NCBI RefSeq assembly: GCF_004792515.1
Contig: NZ_CP038865.1
Location: 1,218,770 to 1,242,769 of the forward strand
Direction of reading: 5' to 3'
DNA: 24,000 bases
Origin: Vagococcus xieshaowenii
GTDB lineage: Bacteria > Bacillota > Bacilli > Lactobacillales > Vagococcaceae
Positions within the stretch are counted from its first letter, which is position 1. Each line of letters starts with the position of its first letter. The notes beneath the pieces were generated by a model. The model was given only the letters and a program-made list of their open reading frames with translations. It was not told the DNA's origin and made no database searches. This document shows, in pieces, positions 1 to 17,142 of the stretch. The position numbers and the translations under genes are program-made.

Positions 1-2105
1 CCGCTAGTATTCTTTATTTCATAAGAAGCTGTTTCTGTATTTTTAAAATTATTCTTAACTTTTTCAAAAAAAGCATCCCACGACTCTTCAAAAAAATCTG
101 TTCTTACATGGTTTTCGTTTAAATTAACTCGATTTAAAAATTCAGTGAAAATGCCTGGTCTAATTCTATACTGCATTTTTTGTTCTTCATCAATTATTAA
201 TTTTGCACCGCCAACAAAATCATCGTAAGCATAATCTTGATGAAATTGAATAAATTCAAATTGGTCATGATTATTTAACTCCTCAATTGAAATACCAATC
301 ATTTCAGAGGCTATTTTTTTTGCTAAATAAGTTTTTCCAACACCACTAGGACCTGTTAGAATAATATTTTTTGAAACAAAAGTTTTTTCTATATATTCGA
401 GTATTCCTTCTTTTTCTTCTAAAGAATCATTTATTTTAAGCGATTCATTCTCAGGTAAAACTTCTTGCTCATTAATATCAACATGACTTTTGCCATTATT
501 TAATTTTTCCAAGATACTAAATAATTTTTCATAAGAATAACTATTTCCTAATGCTATCTTGTTCGATGATACATGCCATACACTATCATAAATCCCCCTC
601 ATTGAAGCAATTGATTTTTTTTCTAAAAAATTACCAATTGACTGTTTGGGATGGCTTGTCGACAGAAGAACAAAGTTTTTTTGATACAGTGTTGCTTGCG
701 AATCATAATACAAGAAAACATCTCCAAACTTTATAAAGGGAAATTCTACTAAATTATGACCATCCATAAATTCCCTAGTTAGTTCAATATCCGATAAAAG
801 AGTTTCTCTCTTGCTCTCAATCAATTTAAAATAATTTTCACGTCCTATATTATTCGCTATTATTTGACTTCTAGCATCTTCAATTGCTGTTAAAAATTCA
901 TCAAGATATATTTTAAATTTATTAATGGATGCTTCTCTTGAATTCATTATGATTTCTTCATTTAATTCCTTTGTTACTTCATGATTAATTAATGTTTTAG
1001 AAGCTTTTGCAGATTGGACAGGTTGTTTCTTTATAAGATTACTAGATGCTTTCTTTAATCCGGTTCTATAAATTAAAGGTAAACATAAGAAAAAATTATC
1101 CGACCAGCCATATTGTTTATACTTTGTAAAAACATCAATAATTAATTTATCTTCATCAAGCTTTACTTTTTTCATTTTAAAAAAAGATTTCACGCGAGTC
1201 ACGACATCTTTTTCTTTTTTTATATTCCAGCCATCTAAATTTCTAGCTAGGCGTTCAAAATATTGAGGCGTGTATTTTAGTTCAATATGTGCTTCAATTT
1301 CCTTTCTTGTGATTTTGTTTTGTTTCAACTGCTGTTTAAAATCATCTTCTGGTTCAAATAGAACCAGTTCCATATTATCTTTGGTATCAAGCATAAACGA
1401 TTCAAAAACGTTTCTATATGGATTTAAATTTGGACTGTATTCCATCAAATGCAAATCTACTTTTCTTATTTCTTGTAAAATTGCTTGATAATCTGCTGTA
1501 AAAATCGGAAAATTTGTCCGTTTAAATTCAGAGAATCTTATTCCTAATGTCTTATTCAATTTAACTGGTTCATTGTATGAATTATTTCGATATAAAGCAA
1601 AATTATATTTTTTCCATAAATCTTCAGGAAATTCGTATTTTCTGTCTTTTAACCAAAGTAATTCATCCATTGAAACATCTATTCTATTAATTCCTCTTTT
1701 TATTTCATCAGCAACCTTTTGTGAAATATTAAGATGATCCTTAAAGTGAGTAATTCCAAGACCCATTTTTTGATTAGATTTAGTTGATTTAATTACGTAT
1801 TGATACTTTAATGGATAACCACATTTGCACCGTAAATTCTTGCTTACCTTCTTTTGATAATTCCAATCTACCTCTAATCTATCAAATTCCCATTCTGTAT
1901 TTTCCAAATACCTTTTCGTAGAAAAAACAGAACGTAATCGATATTTTTTTTGATCATTAACTAGTTGTTTCTCATTCTTAGTTAATTTATTGTATAAAGA
2001 ATCTCGCTCCTCTTTTAGATAATGTTTTGTACATTCTTTTGGATAATACTTTAAACCATAAGTATTTGGATACCATTTATCAAATAATTGTAAATAATTA
2101 ATCAT
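1..2105 (-). CDS. McrB-like AAA+ NTPase (McrBC / type IV restriction-family motor) with a long unrecognised N-terminal region; partial, C-terminus lies beyond position 1
   Basis: This ORF is absent from the ORF track because it has no in-window stop. Reading the reverse complement from ATG 2105-2103 (SD GAGAGGGA at 2111-2118) gives 701 uninterrupted codons down to position 3 (MINYLQLFDKWYPNTYGLKYYPKECTKHYL...). Walker A NIILTGPSGVGKTYLAKK is encoded around 330-353, with the Gly at about residue 585. It is followed by FEFIQFHQDYAYDDFVGG (core at 216-245) and YRIRPGIFTEF (about 147-161), which resemble the McrB hallmark FHQSYSYEDF...G.F. As a consistency check, a stop in this frame would have produced a listed minus-strand ORF starting at 2105, and none is listed. 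Confidence 0.8.
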   Translation of the reverse strand, partial: MINYLQLFDKWYPNTYGLKYYPKECTKHYLKEERDSLYNKLTKNEKQLVNDQKKYRLRSVFSTKRYLENTEWEFDRLEVDWNYQKKVSKNLRCKCGYPLKYQYVIKSTKSNQKMGLGITHFKDHLNISQKVADEIKRGINRIDVSMDELLWLKDRKYEFPEDLWKKYNFALYRNNSYNEPVKLNKTLGIRFSEFKRTNFPIFTADYQAILQEIRKVDLHLMEYSPNLNPYRNVFESFMLDTKDNMELVLFEPEDDFKQQLKQNKITRKEIEAHIELKYTPQYFERLARNLDGWNIKKEKDVVTRVKSFFKMKKVKLDEDKLIIDVFTKYKQYGWSDNFFLCLPLIYRTGLKKASSNLIKKQPVQSAKASKTLINHEVTKELNEEIIMNSREASINKFKIYLDEFLTAIEDARSQIIANNIGRENYFKLIESKRETLLSDIELTREFMDGHNLVEFPFIKFGDVFLYYDSQATLYQKNFVLLSTSHPKQSIGNFLEKKSIASMRGIYDSVWHVSSNKIALGNSYSYEKLFSILEKLNNGKSHVDINEQEVLPENESLKINDSLEEKEGILEYIEKTFVSKNIILTGPSGVGKTYLAKKIASEMIGISIEELNNHDQFEFIQFHQDYAYDDFVGGAKLIIDEEQKMQYRIRPGIFTEFLNRVNLNENHVRTDFFEESWDAFFEKVKNNFKNTETASYEIKNTS

Positions 2106-2247: not shown

Positions 2248-2326
2248 CTCAAACGTATCCAAAACCATTTGACGAAGAGACAAAAAAAAACTCTAAACGT
2301 TCATTTAACAACGTTTAGAGCGTATA
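2248..2326. repeat. Left copy of an imperfect direct repeat of about 75-85 bp (includes a terminator hairpin)
   Basis: Three colinear perfect blocks are shared with 17055-17142. They are cgtatccaaa (2254-2263 and 17073-17082), caaaaaaaa (2281-2289 and 17094-17102) and atttaacaacgttta (2303-2317 and 17119-17133). The offsets are 14819, 14813 and 14816. The last block extends to 21 of 23 matches. Confidence 0.5.
2282..2320 (-). terminator. Rho-independent terminator ending the yhf-like operon
   Basis: There is a perfect 11-bp stem, ctctaaacgtt (2291-2301) with aacgtttagag (2310-2320), and an 8-nt loop. The A9 run at 2282-2290 becomes a U9 tail on the minus-strand transcript. Confidence 0.8.
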
Positions 2327-2552: not shown

Positions 2553-3590
2553 TTATATACCTCTTTCAAAATAGTTTTTTAAATTTCCAAAATAACTTTC
2601 AATCAATCCATCTTCATTTATTTGAAATTTATTAGCTATTTCAAATATTTTTTGGATATTCTCTATATTGTTTTTAGCCATTATAACATATCCAGTACTT
2701 AGCTCATTAGTTGGTACTGTCAAAACAATAACATTAAGCATATTTGCTACACGAATGTAACCTTTATTTGCAAGTTTTTGTTTTTCTTTTGTTTCATTGT
2801 CGAAATGTCCATAAATTGTATCACCAAGTCCATTAAGATCAACTGGTCCTTCTTTAGAAATCACAATATCGTAATCAGATAAATAAGAATCTAACTCTTC
2901 AATCAAGTCTTTTCTAGAATATTTATATTTATTATTCATATTCTTTTTTTCTATCTTATAATTACTTTTTTGCATGAATTTTTCATCCAGCTGTTCATCC
3001 ATTAATACGGTTATCGAATTATGTAATTTTGATTGAAAAGATTCAATCTCCAATAATCCACTAACTAATTTTTCAATATGAAATAATTCTCTTGAAATTA
3101 ACCCAATTGAAGGAGCAAATACAATCCCATCTGTTGAAATTTTTTTCTCGTAAAGAAAACTTGGATCTTTACCTATGGTTGGGTGAATAAAACCAAATAA
3201 ATTTAAACTCATAGCAGGGGCAAGTACAGAGCCTCCACCATCCGTACCCACTCCTACATCATTAATTCTCAAAAATACGTTTATTGCTGTACCACTTGAA
3301 GAACCCGTCATTGGTTTACCTGTAATTGGATTTTTCAAATCAATATCTATAGCTCTTCCTGAATGACTAGCTTTATCCACTGTATGATGAAAATAATTTA
3401 ACGTTTCCATTTTTTTAATCAAGTCATTAGAAATAAGACTTACATTCTTAGTGCCAAAATAATACCCGTTACTGTCACTAATATTATCAATAGAATTAGG
3501 GTAAGTTTTAATTACTGATTTGTATGGATTACTTATTGCAACAAATGTTTTTTTAGCGTATTCTTTAATACGATTATTTCTCCTCTTCAT
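2553..3590 (-). CDS. Short divergent amidase-signature (AS) family protein
   Basis: NPITGKPMTGSSSGTAINV...GVGTDGGGSVLAPAMSL aligns with the AS core NP...GGSSGGSAAAVA...LGTDTGGSIRIPA. The start was re-called to ATG 3590 (residue 12 of the track ORF) because GGAGG lies 4 nt upstream, whereas the track TTG at 3623 has no SD. The protein is 345 aa, compared with about 450-500 aa for typical AS amidases. It is the last gene of the operon. Confidence 0.7.
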   Translation of the reverse strand: MKRRNNRIKEYAKKTFVAISNPYKSVIKTYPNSIDNISDSNGYYFGTKNVSLISNDLIKKMETLNYFHHTVDKASHSGRAIDIDLKNPITGKPMTGSSSGTAINVFLRINDVGVGTDGGGSVLAPAMSLNLFGFIHPTIGKDPSFLYEKKISTDGIVFAPSIGLISRELFHIEKLVSGLLEIESFQSKLHNSITVLMDEQLDEKFMQKSNYKIEKKNMNNKYKYSRKDLIEELDSYLSDYDIVISKEGPVDLNGLGDTIYGHFDNETKEKQKLANKGYIRVANMLNVIVLTVPTNELSTGYVIMAKNNIENIQKIFEIANKFQINEDGLIESYFGNLKNYFERGI

Positions 3591-3624
3591 AATTCCTCCA
3601 AAAAAAGCCTGGATATTATCCAAG

Positions 3625-4839
3625 CTAATTATTTATTATATTTTTAAGAAAAGAATGACCATTTTGCGGCGATGATACACCAAAGAATTCTGAGACTGTG
3701 GCACCAACGTCAGCTAAAGTTAATCGTTCACCAATCATTCTCCCTTGAACTCCTGGACTATAAATCAATAACGGAACGCGTTCCCTTGTATGATTACTAT
3801 GTCCGATTGTTGGGTCATTTCCATGATCAGCCATTACAATTAATATATCACCTTTATTTAATAATGGTAATAATTCTCCTATTCGTTTGTCACTAAGCTC
3901 TAGACGATCTGAATATCTACTAACATCTTCAGCATGCCCCGCTAAATCTGTTTCCTGAATATTAAGAGCAATAAAACCTGTTTCGATAGATTCAATTTCT
4001 GAAATCAAACAATCAAAAAGATATTCTGAGTCAACTCCTGGAAATAGTCGCTTACTATCCGTTTGAATAATATCAGCAATTTTACCTAAGAAAGAAACAG
4101 TAATCCCAGCTTTGTCAAGAATTGTAGGTGTTTGAACATTTTTCTCAATACCGTAACCTAAATGAACTACCTGATATCCATGATTGTAGACGCCAGATTC
4201 TGGTGCATCTACTCCTGCTATCTCATTATTTTTTGTTTTTCTAGCAGCTAAAATATCATCTAACGTGATTTGTTCTCCTCCAAAGGTAATCACTCGAGAT
4301 ACTTCTACAACTTCACGAACTGCATATCCAATTTTTTTTAACTCTTCAAAACTCACTAAATCTAAGCTAGCAGTTACATTATACACCTGACCATAATCTG
4401 TTTCTAAATTGTCACCAACTGTAGCATATTCATTGACAACTAGTATTTCAGTTCCTTTATCTCCAACACGTCTTACTTTATAACCATGCTTGTGTAAATT
4501 TTCTTCAACAATATCTATTTTTTGATTGAAAGGTTGAATTAAAGGAACTTTCGGCGTAGTCCCCATTATTTCTTGATGCCCTAAAAAAGAATCTGCTCCA
4601 TGATGTGCAAGGTTAGAAGTTCCATAATTAGAGGTTGTGCTGAAATGATGTTTACCGATTTCATATCCCAATGCATTCATCAATCCTAATTTTTCAAGAA
4701 CAGGTAGCTGAATTTCAATATTTTGTTCAATAATGTGACCAGCAGTACTACTTCCAATATCTTGAGGCCTTACTTCGATACAATCATTCATTGCACCTAC
4801 CCCAAAACTATCCAAAACTATTACGATAAATCTACTCAT
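3625..4839 (-). CDS. yhfW: Phosphopentomutase-like metalloenzyme (YhfW family)
   Basis: The sequence MSRFIVIVLDSFGVGAM...ADHGNDPT...HT.E.VPLL is typical of the DeoB/alkaline-phosphatase superfamily. The SD GAAGGTGA overlaps the upstream stop. Its position in the yhf-type cluster supports the call. Confidence 0.85.
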   Translation of the reverse strand: MSRFIVIVLDSFGVGAMNDCIEVRPQDIGSSTAGHIIEQNIEIQLPVLEKLGLMNALGYEIGKHHFSTTSNYGTSNLAHHGADSFLGHQEIMGTTPKVPLIQPFNQKIDIVEENLHKHGYKVRRVGDKGTEILVVNEYATVGDNLETDYGQVYNVTASLDLVSFEELKKIGYAVREVVEVSRVITFGGEQITLDDILAARKTKNNEIAGVDAPESGVYNHGYQVVHLGYGIEKNVQTPTILDKAGITVSFLGKIADIIQTDSKRLFPGVDSEYLFDCLISEIESIETGFIALNIQETDLAGHAEDVSRYSDRLELSDKRIGELLPLLNKGDILIVMADHGNDPTIGHSNHTRERVPLLIYSPGVQGRMIGERLTLADVGATVSEFFGVSSPQNGHSFLKNIINN

Positions 4840-4843
4840 TTTA

Positions 4844-6001
4844 TCACCTTCTAATTAAATTCCCTAAACTGTTATATATTCCTTCAAGTTTTGGAGTTCC
4901 CGAGCTGATACCTGATACAACCGCTACATCACTTCTAGTGACGAACACTTGCGTTCTAAATGCCGCGATGACCGTAGAACCAACTGGATGAACTTTATTG
5001 CTTTCTAAATAATAATCAATACTTTCATTTCCAAATGGTGCTACTGTATCCTTGGAATAATTTTCATCTTTATCAATTACTAAAATATTTTCAAGATGCC
5101 CTCTTCGGTAATACCCTCCTCCATAAAAATATGAATGACCATCTAAAGAATGTGAGATTTCACTGACGTATACCATACTTGGTAATTCTTCTAAATCTAA
5201 TTTTGCATGAAGAGGCGTAGTACCTGTTAAAGCATGACCCGGCTCTCCCTGTGTTCCTTGTATTCCCTTGATTAGTGGAATTGTAGTACAACAAGTAGCT
5301 GAAGGAATATTTAGTTCTTGAACTTCGATGCCATGTTTCTTAAATATATTTCTAGCTGTATTAATAGTTTTCACATTATTTGTGGGCTTCAACTCTTTTT
5401 CACCATCAAATAAAAAACAAGGAAAAGAGGTAATACCAGCTATTTTAATATTATCTAACTTCTTAGCTATAGCTATTAATTCTTCTAAGTCCTCTAAATG
5501 ATAGCCACCAAACTGTCCTTCATATATTTCATCTGTAGGCTCAACAACTTTGATTAATACTTGTTGTACTTTATTTAATTTTTGAGCAACAGTATTTATA
5601 TTGTTCAACATTTCATTAGAAAATACAGTTATAAATTTGGGTCCATACGCAATTATTCTCTCTAACATGTTTTTGGGTACTTGAACTAGATGACCTACAT
5701 TACCTATGGGCAAATTATGTTCCATCATTATCAGCGCTTCTTTAAAATCAACGACCACCGCATGACTGATACCCGCTTCAACAATTTTCCGAGATACTAA
5801 TGGGTTTCTCCCAAACTGTTTCGTCATATAAAAAAGTTCTAATTTATACTTGTCTGCTTTTTCCTTCATCACCTTAGCATTGTGAGTAATCATATCTAAA
5901 TCTAACACGTACGTATCTGGTAAGATTAATCCTTGTTTATGTAGTTGAGACGCTGCCTCAATAAGTTTGGGATTCCTACGTTTAGTCAGTTCTAAAAACA
6001 T
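4844..6001 (-). CDS. yhfX: Alanine-racemase-N-terminal-fold PLP barrel protein (YhfX family)
   Basis: The N-terminus MFLELTKRRNPKLIEAASQLHKQGLILPDTYVLDLD and the 385-aa length fit my recollection of E. coli YhfX. The SD AAGGAGG is followed by 5 nt (ATTAA), which contains the yhfY stop TAA, and then the ATG. The cluster context also supports the call. Confidence 0.8.
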   Translation of the reverse strand: MFLELTKRRNPKLIEAASQLHKQGLILPDTYVLDLDMITHNAKVMKEKADKYKLELFYMTKQFGRNPLVSRKIVEAGISHAVVVDFKEALIMMEHNLPIGNVGHLVQVPKNMLERIIAYGPKFITVFSNEMLNNINTVAQKLNKVQQVLIKVVEPTDEIYEGQFGGYHLEDLEELIAIAKKLDNIKIAGITSFPCFLFDGEKELKPTNNVKTINTARNIFKKHGIEVQELNIPSATCCTTIPLIKGIQGTQGEPGHALTGTTPLHAKLDLEELPSMVYVSEISHSLDGHSYFYGGGYYRRGHLENILVIDKDENYSKDTVAPFGNESIDYYLESNKVHPVGSTVIAAFRTQVFVTRSDVAVVSGISSGTPKLEGIYNSLGNLIRR

Positions 6002-6002
6002 A

Positions 6003-6353
6003 TTAATCCTCCTTAAGAATATTAATAATATGTAAGTAGAAATAATCTAATTCCGATTCTTCAAATTCATTTCCATTAATCTTTTCTAATTCTGACCAAA
6101 TAACTTTTGCTTTTTCATATTTTGGATTCATCATAATATCGGAAATAATAAACTCATCTAAACTAGCAACAGCTTCATTTTTAACCCGTCTAGCATCTGC
6201 CATCGCCAAATGTGTTAAAAAAACTTCAGCCTCTGCAGATTCTTTAATAATCTCTTTATTCAATAAATATTCTAAAACTTCTAAGGAATAATCTTGTGTC
6301 TCTTTGCTAATAACGTCTGTACTAACTAAAATTTCTAGTTTCTGTTTAATCAT
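6003..6353 (-). CDS. yhfY: Stand-alone PRD-domain protein (YhfY family)
   Basis: The protein is 116 aa and carries the PRD-type motif FLTHLAMADARR with a conserved His. It has no RNA- or DNA-binding domain. The SD is AAGGAG. Confidence 0.8.
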   Translation of the reverse strand: MIKQKLEILVSTDVISKETQDYSLEVLEYLLNKEIIKESAEAEVFLTHLAMADARRVKNEAVASLDEFIISDIMMNPKYEKAKVIWSELEKINGNEFEESELDYFYLHIINILKED

Positions 6354-6364
6354 TGTGCACTCCT

Positions 6365-7288
6365 TTAATATCTGGGAATAATTTCTCCATCTTTCACTTG
6401 CTTTTGTATTTTCAATACATTTTCTTTATCAAATATTTTATTGAAAAAAGCTTGCATTGATTTATCTTCTTCATGACAAATAATCACAGAAGTATTCAAA
6501 TCTGTTTCAATAAGCGTGTTCTTCAACATTACTGCCTTGAGTTCATGGAGATTTTTATCCTTTATCTCGTCATAATTCCAAATCCCTGCATCAATAATTC
6601 CTTCTTTTAATGAATAGATAATTTGATGTCCTGGCATTTCAATCAATTCAACCTGTTTGTTTACTATATTTTCTTGTGTCAATAACTGCTGATCTAACGA
6701 ACTATAATCAATTGCAATACGCATACTATCTTCAATTGTTTCTTTCGTGGAATCAGAAAACAAAAGAACATGCTGACTAAGATAAGTTTTTTCACCAAAG
6801 TCAACCGTTATACAAACTGGTTCACCTTGGTTAATCGCTTGATTGGCAGCAAATTTTGAGACTACAGCAAAGCGATAAGTTTTCATTAATATTGAACGTA
6901 CCCTTTCCTTTGACCCTCTAATATAAGCAAGATTTAACTTTGAATTATGTTTACTAAATTCATCATAAATACCAGTGGCTAAACCTTCATACAATTTAGA
7001 GTAAGGTAATGTCATAGTTCCTAAAATAGATTCAGAAAGAGCATATTCTTGCAAAATAGGATAATTAATTTCTTCGATAAAAGTACCAAGATGCCCTCTG
7101 CTAACCAAAGCAATCGCTTTTTCATCTTTTAAATACTTAATTGCAGTTTGAATAGTTCCTCTTGCCACACCATAATGTTCTTGAAATTCCGAAATACTTG
7201 GCATTCTATCCCCTTTTTTTAATTGTAGAAAATCTGAAGCAAGTTGATTTATAATTATGCCTTTTTTTGTTAAGAACTTATTGCCCAT
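6365..7288 (-). CDS. yhfZ: GntR-type wHTH regulator with YhfZ-type C-terminal domain
   Basis: The N-terminal sequence MPSISEFQEHYGVARGTIQTAIKYLKDEKAIALVSRGHLGTFI is a GntR-like wHTH. The 307-aa length and cluster context match YhfZ. Confidence 0.8.
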   Translation of the reverse strand: MGNKFLTKKGIIINQLASDFLQLKKGDRMPSISEFQEHYGVARGTIQTAIKYLKDEKAIALVSRGHLGTFIEEINYPILQEYALSESILGTMTLPYSKLYEGLATGIYDEFSKHNSKLNLAYIRGSKERVRSILMKTYRFAVVSKFAANQAINQGEPVCITVDFGEKTYLSQHVLLFSDSTKETIEDSMRIAIDYSSLDQQLLTQENIVNKQVELIEMPGHQIIYSLKEGIIDAGIWNYDEIKDKNLHELKAVMLKNTLIETDLNTSVIICHEEDKSMQAFFNKIFDKENVLKIQKQVKDGEIIPRY

Positions 7289-7302
7289 TTGATCCCTCTT
7301 CT

Positions 7303-8394
7303 CTATACAATACTCATTGCTTTCTTAAGTATTCGAATAATTGTATCCACACCAGCTCTATTTGGGTTAATCCGAATCATTGAGTCCTCAGCTAGAGGAT
7401 TTGCTGAACGGAATGTTCCCGATACTCGATAGACTAACGGCGCAAATTCATACTTTGATTCTGCACCCACCGGATGAGGAAGTGCTCCTAAAGTTGTTGC
7501 TGCTTCAATAATTTTTTTGGCGTTGTTTTCTTTTAAATTGATAACTACAACTTTTGATTGAGCATTAACAACAAAGGCACTTTCTAATCCAGGGACTTCT
7601 CCTTTATTAATTCTATCACATAATTCTTCACTAACCTTTGAAGAAATAGCTAATGAAACCGGTGCGTAAATAAGCCCTTTTAACACATCTAAAGCCTCAT
7701 GACCTTGTACCTGACCACCACCAGAGTAATTTTCTTGTTTTAGTTTATCAAGATAAATTTTATCGCCTACAATACATCCAATGCCTTCAGGACCTAACAA
7801 CTTAAATGTTGAAAAACAGGCTAAATTGCCTCCTAATTGACTACCAATTCCTTTAGTTTTTAAAGCAGAGTAATTATCATCTGTCACAATAGGAATTGTT
7901 TTATCGACAGATTTGATAGTTCCTATAAGTTCTTCTAAATCATAAAAATCATCAATTTTTTGACGAGTCACTTGAATCAACACACCGTCAATCTCATGTT
8001 TATTCAGACATTGCTTCACTTCACTTAAATCATTAAAGTTAGCCTCAATCGTATTAATGCCTAACATATCAATAGATACTTTAGTGGTTGGATAAATTGG
8101 TGCTTGGTGAACCAATATCGTTTTACCAGTTCCAACGGCACTATGTAAAGCTAATCTAATTGCATTAGTACCAGATCCACGTACCAATAATGCTGATTCA
8201 CAACCGAAAAAGTGAGCTAAAGTCTCTTCAGTTTTTTTAGTAGTTATTGGTTGATTTAAACCTTTAACTACACCTAAATCACCCCGTGTTAGAATTTCAT
8301 TTCCAGGAAAAAACCTAGTTATTGAATCTACCAGTTTAAACTGTAAATTAGTCGCTTCCTCTAAAGTTAAACTTTTCAATGGATACGTATTCAT
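7303..8394 (-). CDS. yhfS: PLP-dependent fold-type I enzyme (YhfS family)
   Basis: The protein is 363 aa. FSTFKLLGPEGIG contains the candidate PLP lysine. The C-terminal GAESKYEFAPLVYRVSGTF...IRINPNR, the length and the gene order all fit YhfS. Confidence 0.8.
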   Translation of the reverse strand: MNTYPLKSLTLEEATNLQFKLVDSITRFFPGNEILTRGDLGVVKGLNQPITTKKTEETLAHFFGCESALLVRGSGTNAIRLALHSAVGTGKTILVHQAPIYPTTKVSIDMLGINTIEANFNDLSEVKQCLNKHEIDGVLIQVTRQKIDDFYDLEELIGTIKSVDKTIPIVTDDNYSALKTKGIGSQLGGNLACFSTFKLLGPEGIGCIVGDKIYLDKLKQENYSGGGQVQGHEALDVLKGLIYAPVSLAISSKVSEELCDRINKGEVPGLESAFVVNAQSKVVVINLKENNAKKIIEAATTLGALPHPVGAESKYEFAPLVYRVSGTFRSANPLAEDSMIRINPNRAGVDTIIRILKKAMSIV

Positions 8395-8397
8395 TTT

Positions 8398-9279
8398 TTA
8401 ACCTCTATTCATAAATTCTATTGGATTATCTTCCAGCATTTTATTAATAAACGATTCTGAAACACCTGTTTCTAATGCCAATGGCACAAATGTATCTAAC
8501 AAGTAAGAATAGCCAATGCCACCCATATACTCTAAATTTGACTTTCTTGTTATATCCATTGAAAGAAATACTTTATCAGTAAAGCCTCTTTTTTCAATTT
8601 CTAGTAACATTTCAGTTCTCAATTTGTCTGGTTGATAATTTTCTTTACCAATTGTGTCAAACTCAACATAGACACCTTGATCCAGCATATGTAGAATATA
8701 GTCAATATCACCTGTTAAATCTACATGTCCAATAACTACTTTTGACAACTCAACCTGATGATTTTTGAAAAACTCAACCTGCTCATGTCCATAAGTTCCA
8801 AGAGTCGTGTGAGTAGTAATTGGTACCCCAGTTTCTTTATGAGCTAACACGGATGCTGAAAACACCTTACGTTCATTTTCAGTCATGACGTTCTTACTTG
8901 TCCCAATTTCACCAATAATTTGAGCTCTAATATTTGTATCAGCAATTCCACAATTAATTTCTTTTACCATAAAATCAGAAAGGTCTTTAATGGAATAATC
9001 AGTTACAAAATCTGGTAAAAACTTATCTTGATAAAAACCTGTTGCTTGAACGATATTCATACCAGTTTCTTTTGCTACTCGTTCTACATATTGAGGATTT
9101 CTTCTCATATCCATATTGGTAACATCAACAATATTACGTACACCTTTAGAATACAATTTTTTGTATTCTTTTACAGTTTCTTCATAACAATTTAAATTAG
9201 TATCATCAATATTTTTTAATCGAGATAAATCGATAGTGGTATGTTCATGCATGTATGTTATGCCTTTTTTTAGTACCAT
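8398..9279 (-). CDS. php: Phosphotriesterase-homology protein (Php, amidohydrolase superfamily TIM barrel)
   Basis: GITYMHEHTTIDLS carries the HxH metal motif, and later His and Asp ligands are present (GHVD, SMDITR). The start was re-called to ATG 9279 because AAGGAG lies 9 nt upstream. The track TTG at 9303 would overlap yhfT. The result is 293 aa. Confidence 0.85.
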   Translation of the reverse strand: MVLKKGITYMHEHTTIDLSRLKNIDDTNLNCYEETVKEYKKLYSKGVRNIVDVTNMDMRRNPQYVERVAKETGMNIVQATGFYQDKFLPDFVTDYSIKDLSDFMVKEINCGIADTNIRAQIIGEIGTSKNVMTENERKVFSASVLAHKETGVPITTHTTLGTYGHEQVEFFKNHQVELSKVVIGHVDLTGDIDYILHMLDQGVYVEFDTIGKENYQPDKLRTEMLLEIEKRGFTDKVFLSMDITRKSNLEYMGGIGYSYLLDTFVPLALETGVSESFINKMLEDNPIEFMNRG

Positions 9280-9292
9280 GTAATTACACTCC

Positions 9293-10609
9293 TTATCCAC
9301 CAACTACTGGGGTAAATAAACCAATCAAGTTTAATATATTTACAATAATACCCAAAGTAATTGCAGCAATAGGTCCCACTGCTAAATCAACAACTGGTTT
9401 TTTAGCTTTTCTATTTAGCAACAGTAACCCAATAACCCAGAAATAACCAATTCCCGGTGCAATCGACTCTGAAGCCATTGCGCCACCAATTAATAAAGCA
9501 ACTTCTAAAACTTTATTCATAGAGGTTCTTATATGTTCTCCCATTTCTCTAATACCTGGGAATTTATCCAATGCTTTTGCCATCAATGATAACAGTTGAA
9601 CTTCAATAAACATTGCTAACGCACCCACTATAAAGGCTAAAATCGGATTATCTTTTAATAAAATACCAATTACAAAAACAAACGTTGTACCAGCTGGGCT
9701 ATACACACCTGTAACAATAGCTGTTGAAAATACTAAAGGAATAAATCCAATTCCACGAGCAAAAGCCGCTAATGCAGCCTCACTGTATTTACCTTCAGAT
9801 AACAAGTTAAGAGAAATAGGATCCCCTGCAATAATTAATAGACTAGATGCTGCCGAAACCAGTCCACCCATCAATGATAACCAAATCCAATTACGTTTAA
9901 TTCTATTAACACGTTCTAAGAATACACTTACTAAACTTTCATTTGAATTACTACCATCACCTTTTACTTTAATAGCATAGTAGATCATGAAAATCATTCC
10001 AACGAGTAATGACATTCCTTCTGCACTTAAAGTTAAAGACGCACCATTTGCAAGATTAAATGTACCATATTGCTTAACAGCAAATAATGTTAACAATGTG
10101 GCAATAAATGAAATTGCACCTTTCTTAAAGCCGTGTTGACTAGCTACCGCTACCGCTGGAAAAATACTAAAAGAAATGACTACTGGTGATCCAACTTGAG
10201 ATAATGAATCAATAAAGTTTACTGGCATTTTAGCAAATAAATCAACAACTGCTTGTAAACCAAGTACTAAAGCTACACCATAGATAGCACCTACAATCCC
10301 CGATATCACTAATCCCTTTTTACCTTCTGGAGCCCATGAACCAATAATATCCGTCATCAACAAGACACTATGAACTAATAGGATTGAAGCACCAATTGAA
10401 ACAGGAATACCAAAACCAATTACTAAACCAAAACTTAGTGCAAAACTTGTTGCTGCTAATTCTTTCTTACCAATCTTTTTTTCTAAAAATTCAGGAACAA
10501 TCGGTCTTAAGCCATCATTAAAAACGGCAATACCCTTGTTCGCTAATATCGAACTCATACCACCTAAGAGTGCAATGGCGATTAACTCAATAATTTTCGT
10601 AGACGTCAT
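9293..10609 (-). CDS. yhfT: Polytopic membrane protein (YhfT family), putative transporter
   Basis: The protein is highly hydrophobic with many predicted TM helices and is about 438 aa, which fits YhfT. The start was re-called to ATG 10609 (SD AGGTGA 5 nt upstream) instead of GTG 10618. Confidence 0.8.
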   Translation of the reverse strand: MTSTKIIELIAIALLGGMSSILANKGIAVFNDGLRPIVPEFLEKKIGKKELAATSFALSFGLVIGFGIPVSIGASILLVHSVLLMTDIIGSWAPEGKKGLVISGIVGAIYGVALVLGLQAVVDLFAKMPVNFIDSLSQVGSPVVISFSIFPAVAVASQHGFKKGAISFIATLLTLFAVKQYGTFNLANGASLTLSAEGMSLLVGMIFMIYYAIKVKGDGSNSNESLVSVFLERVNRIKRNWIWLSLMGGLVSAASSLLIIAGDPISLNLLSEGKYSEAALAAFARGIGFIPLVFSTAIVTGVYSPAGTTFVFVIGILLKDNPILAFIVGALAMFIEVQLLSLMAKALDKFPGIREMGEHIRTSMNKVLEVALLIGGAMASESIAPGIGYFWVIGLLLLNRKAKKPVVDLAVGPIAAITLGIIVNILNLIGLFTPVVGG

Positions 10610-10631
10610 TTGTTTCACCTATTCCTTATTT

Positions 10632-10991
10632 TTATTTACCAAGCTCATCAATAATGATTGGTATAACGATATCTTTATGTTGCGCAGTAAAACCAAATGC
10701 TCTTTTTCCAGATTTGATTTGAGCTCTAATATCATCTTCAGACATCACATTTCCTGGCATTGAAACAGTTACACAATTATCATGTCCTAGCAATGCTAAC
10801 GCCATGGCTAAGGCACCACCACCACCTGTATTACAAGCACCTAAATAATAGTCAGCTTGACCATTTTTTACTGCCATGGCCGCGTCAAGATCACTTTTAA
10901 CTTCGATTTCAAATCTTCCTTCAGAATATTTTTCAACAAGATTTTTTACCTCTTCTTTATCGATTTGACCACCAATTACAATTTTCTTCAT
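10632..10991 (-). CDS. yhfU: DUF2620 protein (YhfU family)
   Basis: The sequence is MKKIVIGGQIDKEE...YYLGACNTGGGGALAMALALLG. The start was re-called to ATG 10991 (SD AAGAAAGAGGGA 8 nt upstream). The 20-codon extension in the track has no SD. The result is 119 aa, and it is the first gene of the operon. Confidence 0.8.
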   Translation of the reverse strand: MKKIVIGGQIDKEEVKNLVEKYSEGRFEIEVKSDLDAAMAVKNGQADYYLGACNTGGGGALAMALALLGHDNCVTVSMPGNVMSEDDIRAQIKSGKRAFGFTAQHKDIVIPIIIDELGK

Positions 10992-11060
10992 AAATAATCC
11001 CTCTTTCTTAATATACATTTTTTTGTACATTGATGTTTGAAATAACATCATTACACGTTC

Positions 11061-11088
11061 ATTATATCAATATTTTATTTTTTTGCAA
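11061..11088 (-). promoter_or_regulatory. Sigma-A promoter of the yhf-like operon
   Basis: On the minus strand, TTGCAA (11088-11083) is followed by a 16-nt spacer and an extended -10, TGATATAAT (hexamer 11066-11061). It lies about 60-70 nt upstream of ATG 10991. Confidence 0.55.
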
Positions 11089-11204
11089 GCCTTTTCAAAA
11101 GAAACTATTGTAATAATAAATAATTTACTAATAGTAGAATTAACCTATAATTTTTATTGTAGCATTAATCTAAAACGTAACTAATTACAATTAATCAATA
11201 ATAA

Positions 11205-11242
11205 ATAGCCAATAACATTGAAGTAATAATGTTTTTGGCTAT
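11205..11242 (-). terminator. Probable terminator of the bgl/M20 operon
   Basis: A 15-bp stem with one mismatch pairs atagccaataacatt (11205-11219) with aatgtttttggctat (11228-11242) around an 8-nt loop. On the minus strand it is followed by the T-rich TTATTATTGATT, which is not a clean U-tract. Confidence 0.55.
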
Positions 11243-11360
11243 AGTAAAATTAAACCATACTGTCTTTCATTGAAGTATTAGTAAAGATGTTATTTGAAAT
11301 AATAAGATTAATATGTCTATTAAAATCAAATTCATATGAAGATTATATAATTTATATATT

Positions 11361-12545
11361 TTAATCAACTTTTTCCATTAATTTTAAAACTATCTCGCCT
11401 ATCACTTGAGATATTAATAAAAGACTACCTTCATCAATATTAAATTTGGGATGATGGTGAGGATAGCCAATTTCATTTTCTGGCTTGGCTCCAACTAGCA
11501 AGAAACAACTCGGGGCAATTGTTCGATAGTAACAAAAATCTTCCGAAGCAGTAACTCTATAATCAGTCAATATATTAATGTGATTTGATATATTAATGTC
11601 TCTTATTATGTTAGTGACATCACTCATTTTTATTGGATCGTTATATACCTCTTCATAATCATGATTATAATCAAGTTCAAATTCAATATCAAACATTATC
11701 GAAATACCTTTTAATATTCGAACAAATTCTTCTTTAATTTTTTTGCTTGTAGCGCTATTAAAAGTTCGAATATCACCACAAATTTTGACAGTTTCTTGAA
11801 TCACATTAAAACTTCCAGAGCCTTCTACACTTCCAATTGTTAATGTTGCAGGTTCCAAAGGGTCAACTCTTCTACTAATAATTGATTGAACAGCTGTCTG
11901 AAAAAAAGCAACTGCCAAATTAGTATCTTTTGCTAAATGAGGAGCACTTCCATGACCTCCGCACCCTTTAAAGAGAACACTAAAATGATCACGTCTAGTC
12001 ATTATACTACCTGGAGTACATGAAATAGTGCCTAATGGTAATAAACTCCACAAATGTGCTCCAATAAAAAAATCCACATCGTCAACTAGCCCTGAATTAA
12101 TAATTGATTGTGCACCGCCCGGTGGTATTTCTTCAGCTGCTTGATGAATAATTTTAATTGTTCCATTCCACTTATCTTTATAAGTAATTAGTGCTTCTGC
12201 TAGCACCATTAAGTACGCGGTATGGCCATCATGACCACACGCATGCATTACTCCATTATTTTTTGATGAAAAGGATAATCCTGTTTCTTCTAGTATAGCT
12301 AGCGCATCAAAATCTGCTCTAATTCCAATAACATTTCCTGGTTTTTGTCCATTTATTGTTACTACAATCCCGTTACTATTCGGATCCTTTTCAACTAAAC
12401 AATCTTTGGTCGAATAATAATCATAAATATAATTAGATGTTTGAAATTCATTAAATGATAGTTCTGGATTTTCATGTAAATAGCGTCTAATAGAAATCAT
12501 TTTTTTCTCATTATCTTCAAGAAATTTATTAATGTAGTTATTCAT
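11361..12545 (-). CDS. M20D-family amidohydrolase (N-acyl-amino-acid amidohydrolase / hippurate hydrolase type)
   Basis: The MHACGHDGHTA metal-binding motif, the 394-aa length and the N-terminal RRYLHENPELSF are all typical of M20D (the YxeP, AmhX and ILR1 group). AGGAGG lies 5 nt before the ATG. The gap after the bglA stop is only 20 nt and contains no hairpin, so the genes are co-transcribed. Confidence 0.85.
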   Translation of the reverse strand: MNNYINKFLEDNEKKMISIRRYLHENPELSFNEFQTSNYIYDYYSTKDCLVEKDPNSNGIVVTINGQKPGNVIGIRADFDALAILEETGLSFSSKNNGVMHACGHDGHTAYLMVLAEALITYKDKWNGTIKIIHQAAEEIPPGGAQSIINSGLVDDVDFFIGAHLWSLLPLGTISCTPGSIMTRRDHFSVLFKGCGGHGSAPHLAKDTNLAVAFFQTAVQSIISRRVDPLEPATLTIGSVEGSGSFNVIQETVKICGDIRTFNSATSKKIKEEFVRILKGISIMFDIEFELDYNHDYEEVYNDPIKMSDVTNIIRDINISNHINILTDYRVTASEDFCYYRTIAPSCFLLVGAKPENEIGYPHHHPKFNIDEGSLLLISQVIGEIVLKLMEKVD

Positions 12546-12565
12546 ACAGCCTCCTACTTTCTGTA

Positions 12566-15869
<3,304 letters not shown>

Positions 15870-15874
15870 ATTCA

Positions 15875-16708
15875 TTACTCCTTATCTAATATTCTTTGAA
15901 CATGCAGTGTTAAATATATTTTTTCATCTTGATTTGCTTTATATGAATATTCCTCTTCTATAAATTTGGATATTTTTTCTACACAAGAGTATGCTTCTTT
16001 GTATTTTTCTTGAATTACTTCTGCCAAATCATTAAATTTTTCAGTTGATTCTTCACTATTCATTACTCGGATTGTAAAAAATTTCAGGTGTGTAATAAAT
16101 CTTTGATAATATATTGAATTTTCATCATAGTTTAATTCAAAATGGTATTTGATAATATTTAATATTGCATTCATCAGCCTCGTGGATTTATGAACATTAT
16201 AAAAATCCAAACTTGTAGTTGCTGTAATTATATGCCAAGTAATAAAACCTGCTTCATCTTCATTAAAATCACATTCTAGAGTAGCATTAACTAAATCTAA
16301 AATATCCAATGCAATACTAAACTCTTTTTGATAAAAATTTTTAATTTCGAATAACATCGGATTGTCGATCAATAGATTAATTTCTTTCCTTTTAAGTAAC
16401 ATTGTTAAATGGTCTGATAATGTCACATATAATGTATCACTAACTTCAAGTCCATAACTACCTCTTAATAACGAGACTATATTATCAACCAAATCAAATA
16501 TTTCTAATGGAACGTCTACCAAGATATGTTGTAGTTTGTTTCTGATTTCATCATTATCAATAGTAAATTTTTTTTCTGCTTTTTCGATATCAACAGGATC
16601 TCCAACTTTTCTCTCCCAACCAATTCCAACTCCTGTATAAATCACCTCATTTCCTAATTCATCAATAGTTACAACCGCATTATTATTTAGCTTCTTTTTG
16701 ATTCTCAT
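15875..16708 (-). CDS. licT: BglG/LicT-family transcriptional antiterminator (CAT + 2 PRD)
   Basis: The N-terminus MRIKKKLNNNAVVT...GVGIGW is a CAT RNA-binding domain, and the 277-aa length with two PRD-like halves fits the family. The SD is AAAGGAGG. A RAT element lies upstream. Confidence 0.9.
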   Translation of the reverse strand: MRIKKKLNNNAVVTIDELGNEVIYTGVGIGWERKVGDPVDIEKAEKKFTIDNDEIRNKLQHILVDVPLEIFDLVDNIVSLLRGSYGLEVSDTLYVTLSDHLTMLLKRKEINLLIDNPMLFEIKNFYQKEFSIALDILDLVNATLECDFNEDEAGFITWHIITATTSLDFYNVHKSTRLMNAILNIIKYHFELNYDENSIYYQRFITHLKFFTIRVMNSEESTEKFNDLAEVIQEKYKEAYSCVEKISKFIEEEYSYKANQDEKIYLTLHVQRILDKE

Positions 16709-16722
16709 GATAACCTCCTTTC

Positions 16723-16790
16723 AAAAAAAAGAGACCTATCTAGAAAAAAGCACACAAAGAAATCTTGTGTTGCTCTTATCTAAATAGGTC
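16723..16790 (-). terminator. Conditional (antiterminator-controlled) leader terminator of the bgl operon
   Basis: On the minus strand, GGACCTATTTAGA...TCTAGATAGGTCTC forms a long hairpin with an inner CACAAGA/TTTGTG stem, followed by T8 (the A-run at 16723-16730 on the plus strand). Its 5' arm overlaps the 3' end of the RAT. Confidence 0.8.
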
Positions 16791-16816
16791 CAGCTTGCAT
16801 TTGCAATTACTATCCT
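16782..16816 (-). promoter_or_regulatory. RAT (ribonucleic antiterminator) element, LicT/BglG binding site
   Basis: The minus-strand sequence is AGGATAGTAATTGCAAATGCAAGCTGGACCTATTT. The B. subtilis RAT pattern is GGATTGTTACTGC-loop-GCAGGCAAAACCTAAA. The two share the GGAT.GT.A.TGC / GCA.GC...ACCTA architecture and the overlap with the terminator. Confidence 0.8.
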
Positions 16817-16859
16817 ACAAAAAGATAATGATATTTAATATTTATTATTTATATAAATC

Positions 16860-16888
16860 ATTATAACGGGTATTTTTAAGAAAGTAAA
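16860..16888 (-). promoter_or_regulatory. Sigma-A promoter of the bgl operon
   Basis: On the minus strand, TTTACT (16888-16883) is followed by a 17-nt spacer and a perfect TATAAT (16865-16860). The RAT begins about 35-40 nt downstream of the predicted start. Confidence 0.6.
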
Positions 16889-17054
16889 CAGATTGTTTAA
16901 AAACTAATGGGTTATTTGATCTGAAGATTCGATTGTTAAATTAGAAATTGTGTGAGTAATAATCGATTTTTAATCTATAATAAATAAACTCTTACACCCT
17001 TAGAATTTATAATACTAGCTATTAATGGACACACCCTATATTAAAAATATATAA

Positions 17055-17142
17055 CTCAAATGTATCAAAGGGCGTATCCAAAGTAATTTTAGGCAAAAAA
17101 AATAAGCTATAAATTCTGATTTAACAACGTTTATAGCTTATT
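17055..17142. repeat. Right copy of the imperfect direct repeat (includes the sufB terminator)
   Basis: See the left copy for the shared blocks. This copy also contains a local tandem, tgtatcaaag / cgtatccaaag. Confidence 0.5.
17095..17141 (-). terminator. Rho-independent terminator of the suf operon
   Basis: A perfect 12-bp stem pairs ataagctataaa (17102-17113) with tttatagcttat (17130-17141) around a 16-nt loop. The A-run at 17095-17101 gives the U-tail on the minus strand. It starts 7 nt after the sufB stop. Confidence 0.75.

Follow-up and report, generated by a model that had tools for sequence, protein, structure and literature searches.

The window analysed here is a stretch of 24,000 nucleotides from Vagococcus xieshaowenii (assembly GCF_004792515.1, contig NZ_CP038865.1, positions 1,218,770 to 1,242,769 of the forward strand), and positions are counted from its first letter. 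On the minus strand it carries nine same-direction genes spanning 2553-10991 (2553-11051 as longest open reading frames (ORFs), before start correction). The locus is a real nine-gene operon, and it represents the php–yhfSTUWXYZ cluster of E. coli in its Gram-positive form. A sequence-only reading of this DNA had assigned all nine products to families, and Pfam and NCBIfam profile searches confirmed the assignment for each; all eight php–yhf families are present (DUF2620, YhfT, phosphotriesterase (PTE), YhfS, YhfZ, PRD-only, YhfX and YhfW), followed by a short amidase-signature protein. The order U-T-php-S-Z-Y-X-W-amidase, in which single letters stand for yhf genes, is the Enterococcaceae/Carnobacteriaceae arrangement of the cluster.

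Gene starts were corrected from ribosome-binding sites and from the genes annotated publicly for this genome (GCA_053758565.1). Three starts had been overcalled by the longest ORFs. The corrected starts are ATG 10991 for yhfU (119 residues; not 11051), ATG 10609 for yhfT (438 residues), ATG 9279 for php (293 residues) and ATG 3590 for the amidase gene, which has a GGAGG site (345 residues; not TTG 3623). With these starts, the intergenic distances of 1-22 nt given in the sequence-only reading hold for seven spacers, while the spacer between yhfW and the amidase gene is 34 nt.

The catalytic residues of Php, YhfW, YhfS, YhfX and the amidase are intact in alignments. Php (8398-9279, minus strand) is a phosphotriesterase-family binuclear metal hydrolase (Pfam PTE, 2.2e-82) that matches E. 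coli PHP (1bf6/4lef) at E = 4e-82, with 47% identity by tblastn. Alignment to 1bf6 locates the full set of binuclear metal ligands, comprising an HxH motif, a bridging Glu (in IIGEIGTS), two His and an Asp, and these are at least 97% conserved among 85 homologues. Php falls outside the NCBIfam PRK09875 equivalog (339 bits against a cut-off of 486). Lmo2620-type phospho-sugar lactonases (NF045706) share its fold and metal centre (3pnz, 5.7e-33), but Php lies outside this equivalog as well, since it scores 77.7 bits against a cut-off of 630. Mammalian PTER, which belongs to the same family, is an N-acetyltaurine and N-acetyl-beta-alanine amidohydrolase whose metal-contacting residues include H26, H28 and E169 (PMC11374699). 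The PTER structure 9efa matches Php at 2.3e-33; the similarity is distant, PTER stands alone without operon context, and the likeness lies at the metal ligands, with the HxH motif and the Glu at the bridging position in common. Because Php, like PTER, has a Glu at this position, amides are no less plausible as substrates than lactones, and the earlier description of Php as lactonase-like was too narrow: by analogy, it could equally be an N-acyl amidohydrolase or a lactonase.

Two further enzymes depend on pyridoxal phosphate (PLP). YhfS (7303-8394, minus strand, 363 residues; YhfS-like_C / Aminotran_5, 1.2e-40) is a fold-type I PLP enzyme with invariant Lys198 and Asp172 that matches E. coli YhfS (4j8l) at 8e-114. 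Its next PDB relatives by profile are methionine gamma-lyases (1e-10), C-S lyases and cysteine desulfurases, and this kinship points to elimination rather than simple transamination as its likely chemistry. YhfX (4844-6001, minus strand, 385 residues; Ala_racemase_N and YhfX-like_C, 9.2e-36) is a fold-type III PLP enzyme with the alanine-racemase fold and an invariant Lys61; it matches E. coli YhfX (4kbx) at 1.3e-100, followed by alanine racemase (7e-6) and D-threonine aldolase. YhfW (3625-4839, minus strand, 404 residues) is a phosphopentomutase-like metalloenzyme (Pfam Metalloenzyme, 2.4e-38) that passes the YhfW-type model PRK12383 (NF009049; 580 bits against a cut-off of 254) and remains below the DeoB equivalogs (TIGR01696, 152.8 against 341.2; PRK05362, 186.7 against 256). 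Aligned to the B. cereus phosphopentomutase 3m8w, YhfW keeps every metal ligand, and the nucleophile position holds a hydroxyl residue throughout its homologues (Ser in 56/79, Thr in 23/79). YhfW is thus predicted to be a catalytically intact phosphomutase with a DeoB-type metal site.

The ninth product (2553-3590, minus strand, 345 residues) passes the Pfam Amidase model narrowly (4.2e-7; 29.8 bits against a cut-off of 27, over 48 residues). The match covers profile positions 127-173 only of the roughly 445-position PF01425 domain, no NCBIfam amidase model comes near its cut-off, and the best PDB profile match, GatA (1.5e-7), extends over only about 110 residues. The GGSS[GS]G signature and the Ser-cisSer-Lys triad are present, with Lys48, GSSSG (96-100) and DGGGS (117-121) invariant in 26 diverse members. 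Homologues number 1092, of about 338 residues each. With GatA, malonamidase E2, peptide amidase and FAAH the protein shares the Gly/Ser-rich signature and the spacing of K48, S97/98 and S121; the solved members are 412-636 residues long against about 340 here, and some 50-110 residues align. The short amidases form a separate short subfamily, confined to php–yhf clusters in the loci examined.

YhfU (10632-10991, minus strand; Pfam DUF2620, E 6.1e-47 to 1e-46) is identical to a 119-residue protein in a public collection. Its AlphaFold model (pLDDT 95.8) has a flavodoxin-like alpha/beta fold, with a best TM-score of 0.59-0.60 to RpiB 5ifz (probability 1.0, Foldseek E = 9e-3). Cys53 and Thr55 form an invariant C-x-T motif, which pairs in alignment with the same motif in the RpiB-like protein 2ppw. 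YhfU has no significant match to RpiB/LacAB in profile searches: Pfam LacAB_rpiB gives E = 0.065-0.21 (12-13.6 bits against 24.7), and the PDB profile matches to 2ppw (E = 0.033) and 3c5y (E = 0.41) are below significance. YhfU models as a flavodoxin-like protein with distant resemblance to RpiB. A link to the 'glycine-rich SFCGS' family was not established, with a single weak Pfam match (E = 0.27). DUF2620 is a very small family, with 176 representatives among 1.8 billion in a profile search; the ten of these that were checked, including the weakest full-length matches, were all DUF2620. Among fusion proteins, a PTE-DUF2620 fusion (P0379) was dismissed as a functional clue because it is an E. 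coli frameshift product, and a DUF2620-YhfT fusion (P0437) because it is frameshift-like. The sole apparently natural fusion found, P0438 (267 residues, of high-G+C-looking origin), joins DUF2620 to a PRD domain through an Ala/Pro-rich linker, which hints at a possible physical link between YhfU and YhfY.

YhfT (9293-10609, minus strand; Pfam YhfT, 6.5e-169) is a polytopic membrane protein and putative permease. Its model is a bundle of about 20 helices (pLDDT 75), and no relatives were found in the PDB either by fold (TM 0.22 or less) or by sequence. Assignment to EIIC or another known transporter fold was rejected (best TM 0.22; glucose EIIC 8qsr, TM 0.13); since the model is of moderate quality, this mismatch is only absence of evidence. 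YhfY (6003-6353, minus strand, 116 residues; Pfam PRD, 6.7e-5) consists of a single PRD domain and has two conserved phosphorylatable histidines 60 residues apart, His48 and His108, present in 100% and 99% of 82 sequences, respectively. YhfZ (6365-7288, minus strand, 307 residues) combines a GntR-type helix-turn-helix (HTH_41) with a periplasmic-binding-protein-like sensor domain (YhfZ_C, 9.8e-66) and matches the full-length NCBIfam model YhfZ_full (NF041241) with 399 bits against a cut-off of 260. Of the enzyme II components of the phosphotransferase system (PTS), neither EIIA nor EIIB is encoded among the nine genes; a nearby EIIBCA belongs to a separate bgl unit.

The promoter claimed previously is present at 11061-11088 (minus strand) in a consensus scan, with a -35 box TTGCAA, a 16-nt spacer and an extended -10 box TGxTATAAT. 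Such a scan is uninformative by itself in this AT-rich window, where it returned 92 matches against 92.2 expected from shuffled sequence. The promoter is instead supported by conservation, because the alignment shows GGCTTGCA-N17-TAtAAT kept upstream of yhfU in about 12 Vagococcus/Enterococcus loci. The operon ends at an intrinsic terminator (2281-2321, minus strand) with a 12-bp stem at 2290-2321 and a T9 tract (-16 kcal/mol, z = -5.2), a stability reached by 0/200 shuffles. The sequence-only reading counted this as the one terminator, which is incomplete because a hairpin of 9 bp with a 3-nt loop, followed by T7, sits in the 34-nt spacer between yhfW and the amidase gene (3599-3626, hairpin at 3606-3626, minus strand; -11.3 kcal/mol, z = -2.6). 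The amidase ribosome-binding site lies immediately 3' of it. A hairpin with a T-run, differing in sequence, occupies the same site in most of the Vagococcus/Enterococcus loci examined; Granulicatella lacks it, and there the yhfW and amidase genes abut or overlap. The terminator-like element at 3599-3626 is a putative attenuator or processing site.

Two other elements were noted near the operon. A perfect-stem hairpin of 21 bp (2387-2432; -25.7 kcal/mol, z = -7.3) is placed between the amidase stop codon and the final terminator, within a 77-residue hydrophobic ORF (2301-2534) that was rejected as a gene: it has no Pfam match, no homologue in any locus and no call in the public annotation. A riboswitch or antiterminator RNA in the leader was also rejected, as no Rfam family reached threshold in the window and none was credible at 10900-11450 with E up to 1.

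Between the -10 box and the ribosome-binding site of yhfU lies a palindrome, TCAATGTACA-N6-TGTATATTAA (11008-11033), a candidate operator for the GntR-type YhfZ. A consensus, TCAATATACA-N6-TGTATATTGA, was found by aligning the regions upstream of yhfU and was used for scanning with two mismatches allowed per arm. The copy at 11008-11033 is the only match in the window (0 expected by chance), and overall the scan gave 92 matches, spread over 72 of about 90 sources, where shuffled sequence gave 3. Its usual site is immediately 5' of the first gene of a unit, whether this is U, Y, Z, the amidase gene or a gene for a PBP4B-like protein described below, and clusters in different phyla, from E. coli to Clostridia, have it in front of their transcription units. 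Lactobacillus and Companilactobacillus carry it in the U-T spacer, and a minority of matches fall within php or yhfY. The E. coli K-12 cluster shares the motif of the Bacillota, with AATATTCA-N6-TGAATATT occurring twice, in the yhfY-yhfX spacer and directly before yhfZ (L001, 16008-16029 and 17350-17371); the two copies imply two units in E. coli presumably controlled by YhfZ. The arms are conserved in sequence and change symmetrically (in Alkalibacterium, for example, TCAATTTACA...TGTAAATTGA), and as RNA the palindrome forms a weak hairpin of -5.2 kcal/mol. Given these properties and the GntR-type HTH protein encoded in the cluster, the palindrome at 11008-11033 is probably the YhfZ operator.

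Some copies of the motif are intragenic. Several Enterococcus loci have a second, weaker palindrome inside php (L004, 4297; L014, 11444; L016, 6589), and in Granulicatella the sole copy is within yhfY. These php and yhfY copies could be auxiliary operators or chance matches.

To describe the distribution of the cluster, a YhfT alignment was scanned against one genome per species, yielding 296 relatives, of which 80 loci were fetched. Together with the E. coli, Granulicatella, Enterococcus and Vagococcus loci, 84 loci were analysed by tblastn and unbiased clustering of ORFs; some gene absences in this set reflect contig ends. The contiguous same-direction arrangement recurs across these genomes. 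yhfU and yhfT are present in 84/84 loci each, with yhfT directly 3' of yhfU in 84/84, and the other genes follow closely: php in 83/84, yhfS in 82/84, yhfY in 81/84, yhfX in 79/84, yhfW in 78/84 and yhfZ in 77/84. The exact nine-gene order of the window repeats in Granulicatella, Enterococcus and Vagococcus with unrelated flanks. Hosts include gut, oral and food-associated Bacillota, Fusobacteriota and Enterobacteria. Plasmid-borne mobility was considered and rejected, as a yhfT relative was found in 6/72,556 plasmid records, comprising three very large replicons and three chromosome-sized E. coli entries.

The amidase gene is present in 62/84 loci, in Bacillota and Coriobacteriia with one further locus in Cetobacterium (Fusobacteriota), and takes at least five positions: after W, between T and php, between php and S, divergently upstream of U, and upstream of Z. 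The cluster palindrome sometimes lies directly upstream of it. The sequence-only reading had treated the amidase as an addition to the cluster. From its frequency and varied positions, the short amidase is instead a regular cluster member that E. coli lacks, and probably an old one; the clusters of Lactobacillus and Companilactobacillus are without it as well.

A second recurrent neighbour encodes a PF00144 protein, in 18/84 loci (for example L002, 1243-2613; L063, 7736-9022; L070, 12192-13421). These proteins are closest to E. coli PBP4B/YfeW (230-250 bits to NF002968); among PDB structures they come nearest to S. aureus Flp and alkaline D-peptidase, and FmtA and D-amino-acid amidase rank lower. 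All eight of the PBP4B-like proteins examined carry a lipoprotein signal sequence and an SxxK motif, and from the signal sequences they are placed outside the cell. Since the palindrome precedes both amidase and PBP4B-like genes, the two belong in the same regulon; in L063 it lies 160 nt upstream of the PBP4B-like hydrolase gene. Three loci with the PBP4B-like gene (L068, L070 and L087) lack an amidase gene in the cluster. When all flanking ORFs of the 84 loci were clustered without bias, no recurrent neighbours emerged beyond the amidase and PBP4B-like genes; a nucleoside hydrolase gene occurs in 10 loci, mostly of one clade. Other tightly coupled neighbours are single-locus observations. They comprise genes for a NagB/6-phosphogluconolactonase-family protein that overlaps yhfW (L080), glucose-6-phosphate dehydrogenase (G6PD) 67 nt upstream of the cluster (L079), a phosphoglucomutase/phosphomannomutase (PGM/PMM; L084), a Gfo/Idh/MocA oxidoreductase (L008), a macro domain protein (L040), CutC (L074) and a tyrosine-phosphatase-family protein (L077).

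Two unusual forms of the cluster were seen. A Bacillota metagenome-assembled genome (L060) has two yhfT paralogues in one cluster (9983-11293 and 15843-17138); the second product is about 40% identical to YhfT of the window, and yhfU and amidase genes lie downstream of its gene. A B. thuringiensis plasmid (L089, 8184-13502) carries a reduced Y-U-T-php-S-X cluster without yhfW and yhfZ, followed by two ATP-grasp genes. This variant suggests a minimal core of transporter, Php and two PLP enzymes.

The closest known system is the E. coli K-12 cluster yhfZY / yhfXW-php-yhfUTS (b3376-b3383), in which the same eight families are contiguous and co-directional. As stated previously, it lies beside frlABCDR, and every one of its genes is annotated "putative". 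With tblastn, seven of the eight were detected in the E. coli locus at 29-51% identity (S 49, T 35, U 42, Php 47, W 51, X 44, Z 29). The order is not the same: E. coli has Z-Y-X-W-php-U-T-S where the window has U-T-php-S-Z-Y-X-W-amidase, so that the swapped halves described earlier are roughly right, with the additional difference that php is shifted relative to U-T. E. coli appears to have two transcription units, whereas the window has one promoter, and the E. coli cluster contains neither an amidase-signature gene nor an internal hairpin before a ninth gene. The neighbourhoods also differ, with frlABCDR adjoining the E. coli cluster and a bgl-M20 unit and an McrB-like gene adjoining that of the window. 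On its shared families and shared palindrome, the locus is a member of the known php–yhf cluster, and gene order alone sets it apart. New relative to what is known of the cluster are the amidase membership, the operator-like palindrome and the internal hairpin, none of which was found in the full-text literature searched. The same search, which had subscription-only papers outside its scope, found no assigned function for the cluster, in agreement with the sequence-only reading, and placeholder names for its genes persist in the 2026 NCBI annotation.

The ula (L-ascorbate) and dga (D-glucosaminate) PTS operons combine uptake with lactone hydrolysis or deamination and with isomerases, and dga includes a PLP ammonia-lyase. 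Their likeness to the php–yhf cluster is one of analogy only; the families differ, the window has no canonical EIIA/B/C, and YhfT does not have an EIIC fold.

Taken together, the data show a conserved module that regulates itself, keeps its catalytic sites intact and carries an operator-like element specific to the cluster. We lean, tentatively, towards its being a substrate-inducible catabolic unit for an amide-linked amino compound that carries or acquires phosphate or a sugar-phosphate; the earlier suggestion of a phosphorylated amino-sugar or amino-acid conjugate is reasonable as a prediction. Transcription would start at the promoter at 11061-11088 and be repressed by YhfZ bound to the palindrome at 11008-11033 until an effector in its binding-protein-like domain lifted repression, and PRD-only YhfY, with both phosphorylatable histidines intact, would tie expression to the phosphorylation state of the PTS. 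From family chemistry, YhfT would import the compound, and YhfU, a small Cys-x-Thr protein, may act with YhfT as an RpiB-like sugar-phosphate isomerase or a phosphoryl carrier. The cytoplasmic amidase and Php would cleave amide (or lactone) bonds and free an amine, YhfX, with its racemase fold, would invert the amino-acid part, and the gamma/beta-lyase-like YhfS would eliminate or transaminate it; YhfW would then shift the phosphate ester, allowing the carbon skeleton to enter central metabolism. The amidase would be expressed by read-through of a leaky internal terminator, and because such read-through would be needed its level is probably below that of the other eight genes. Amide hydrolysis is supported by the frequency of the amidase (62/84), by the PBP4B-like genes in 18 loci and by the N-acetyl amidohydrolase activity of PTER. 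The phosphate is suggested by the preserved active site of YhfW, by the distant likeness of YhfU to RpiB and by the sugar-phosphate genes found sporadically nearby.

Several observations weigh against this reading. The absence of the amidase gene from the E. coli, Lactobacillus and Companilactobacillus clusters means that amide cleavage by this enzyme is non-essential to the core pathway. The phosphate inference is weakened by the lack of a kinase or EIIA in the cluster, which leaves the origin of the phosphate unexplained, by a YhfU-RpiB link that is below every significance threshold (Pfam 0.065-0.21; Foldseek 9e-3), and by sugar-phosphate neighbours that were each seen once. YhfT has no fold similarity to any solved transporter, as judged from a model of moderate quality (pLDDT 75). 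The palindrome is consistently near the ribosome-binding site and in many cases comes with a run of A on the sense strand; it may therefore act at the RNA level. Finally, the activities of the members, the substrate and the effector are all predictions from sequence.

Each alternative that we considered accounts for a part of this evidence. DgaE is a PLP enzyme that removes the amino group of D-glucosaminate-6-phosphate, and Lmo2620-type enzymes are phospho-furanose lactonases; by extension, the cluster could serve a phosphorylated sugar-lactone or amino-sugar-acid route in which Php is the lactonase, a PLP enzyme deaminates, and YhfW and YhfU shuffle the phosphate and isomerise. The weak match of Php to the NCBIfam phospho-furanose lactonase (77.7 bits) and to 3pnz, the distant RpiB likeness of YhfU, and the neighbouring genes for G6PD, a maker of phospho-lactone (L079), and for the NagB/6-phosphogluconolactonase family (L080) agree with such a route. 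We consider it rather unlikely, given that the lactonase score is far below its cut-off of 630, that YhfS resembles methionine gamma-lyases and C-S lyases with no DgaE/SelA-type model among its matches, that the widespread amidase and the surface PBP4B-like proteins would be left without a role, and that the bridging Glu of Php parallels Glu169 of PTER, an amidohydrolase (PMC11374699). Those surface proteins would find a role in salvage of a D-amino-acid cell-wall fragment, such as a D-alanylated teichoic-acid unit or a muropeptide: a PBP4B/FmtA-like lipoprotein would free the fragment, YhfT import it, the amidase and Php deacylate it, YhfX racemise and YhfS degrade the amino acid, and YhfW take the sugar- or polyol-phosphate. 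The relatives of the PBP4B-like proteins (Flp, alkaline D-peptidase, FmtA and D-amino-acid amidase), their lipoprotein signals and SxxK motifs in eight of eight, the palindrome before one of their genes (L063) and the alanine-racemase fold of YhfX fit this proposal; E. coli yfeW belongs to the murQP operon for N-acetylmuramic acid. It is nonetheless doubtful, as the PBP4B-like gene is limited to 18/84 loci and absent from both the window and the E. coli cluster, known peptidoglycan-recycling enzymes are of other families, and Php and YhfS have no tie to such substrates.

A different kind of proposal concerns uptake, with YhfU, YhfT and YhfY forming an unrecognised PTS-type group translocation in which Cys53 of YhfU is an EIIB-like carrier, YhfT the permease and YhfY the PRD protein that senses its phosphorylation state. 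Phosphorylation would then accompany entry of the substrate, which would explain why the cluster has no kinase. The conserved histidines of YhfY (His48, 100%; His108, 99%), yhfU directly upstream of yhfT in 84/84 loci, the invariant Cys of YhfU followed by a glycine-rich loop at a helix N-terminus, the DUF2620-PRD fusion P0438 and the Lactobacillus palindrome in the U-T spacer, placing U on the side of the regulators Z and Y, are all in its favour. We judge it unlikely, because YhfT matches no EIIC structure (best EIIC TM 0.13), the 50 closest structural neighbours of YhfU include no EIIB, its Cys follows strand 3 as in RpiB and not strand 1 as in EIIB, the cluster lacks an EIIA gene, and the fusion is a single sequence. 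The gamma-lyase kinship of YhfS could also be read as a sign of breakdown of N-acyl-homoserine lactone or homoserine lactone, with the amidase as acylase, Php as lactonase, YhfW producing O-phosphohomoserine and YhfS as gamma-lyase. PTE-like lactonases do hydrolyse acyl-homoserine lactones, and YhfW weakly matches a 'proposed homoserine kinase' model of the same superfamily (E = 0.0039), but at 16 bits against a cut-off of 446 this match is superfamily-level only. A membrane-permeant signal would not be expected to need a dedicated permease and PTS-linked control, most of the hosts are Gram-positive fermenters, and the sugar-phosphate neighbours would go unexplained, making this proposal very improbable. 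In an extension of the catabolic unit that we prefer, YhfT-YhfU would be a new class of uptake system and YhfU would report through YhfY to YhfZ, within a phylum-spanning route by which gut and host-associated bacteria use an amide-linked, phosphate-bearing amino compound; candidate sources would be D-amino-acid-containing cell-wall polymers, in some species freed by the co-regulated PBP4B-like lipoprotein. This extension is speculative, and we hold it to be improbable as a whole.

The php–yhf operon is among the larger operons of E. coli K-12 still without a function, and YhfT and DUF2620 are two families without a known fold relative or activity. The established facts are unsurprising in themselves; what they provide is an easier route to testing a long-standing orphan pathway. 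The defined promoter and operator candidate can be used for inducer reporters and for YhfZ binding and effector assays, the intact active sites offer assay targets, and the parts list is widened by the short amidase and by a surface PBP4B-like hydrolase in the regulon. A specific question is also raised, namely whether PTS phosphorylation reaches YhfY and YhfU. Identification of the substrate could allow names to be given to eight E. coli y-genes and thousands of homologues.

Upstream of the operon, the minus strand at 11361-16708 encodes a licT-type antiterminator, a beta-glucoside PTS EIIBCA, a 6-phospho-beta-glucosidase of glycoside hydrolase family 1 (GH1) and an M20 amidohydrolase (TIGR01891, 335 bits), whose gene follows the bgl genes after 20 nt and has a strong AGGAGG site. 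These genes look like a single unit, closed by a terminator-like hairpin at 11205-11242 (-14.3 kcal/mol, z = -3.8), and the joining of an N-acyl-amino-acid-type amidohydrolase to a bgl operon is unusual. Because the M20 gene has this hairpin of its own, the yhf unit is separate from it. The M20 gene (11361-12545) was rejected as a tenth cluster member on the same ground and because it is absent beside the cluster in loci of other species. Downstream of the operon lies a 957-residue McrB-like AAA gene (window 1-2100, minus strand, crossing the left window edge; L088, 11486-14359). G+C content is 27-35% from 1 to about 17000, covering the McrB-like, yhf and bgl-M20 genes, and about 37-41% across most of the sufCDSUB/mnmA genes beyond ~17000. 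The flanks of the yhf cluster differ in each genus examined, and the left 17 kb of the window is consistent with an acquired island.

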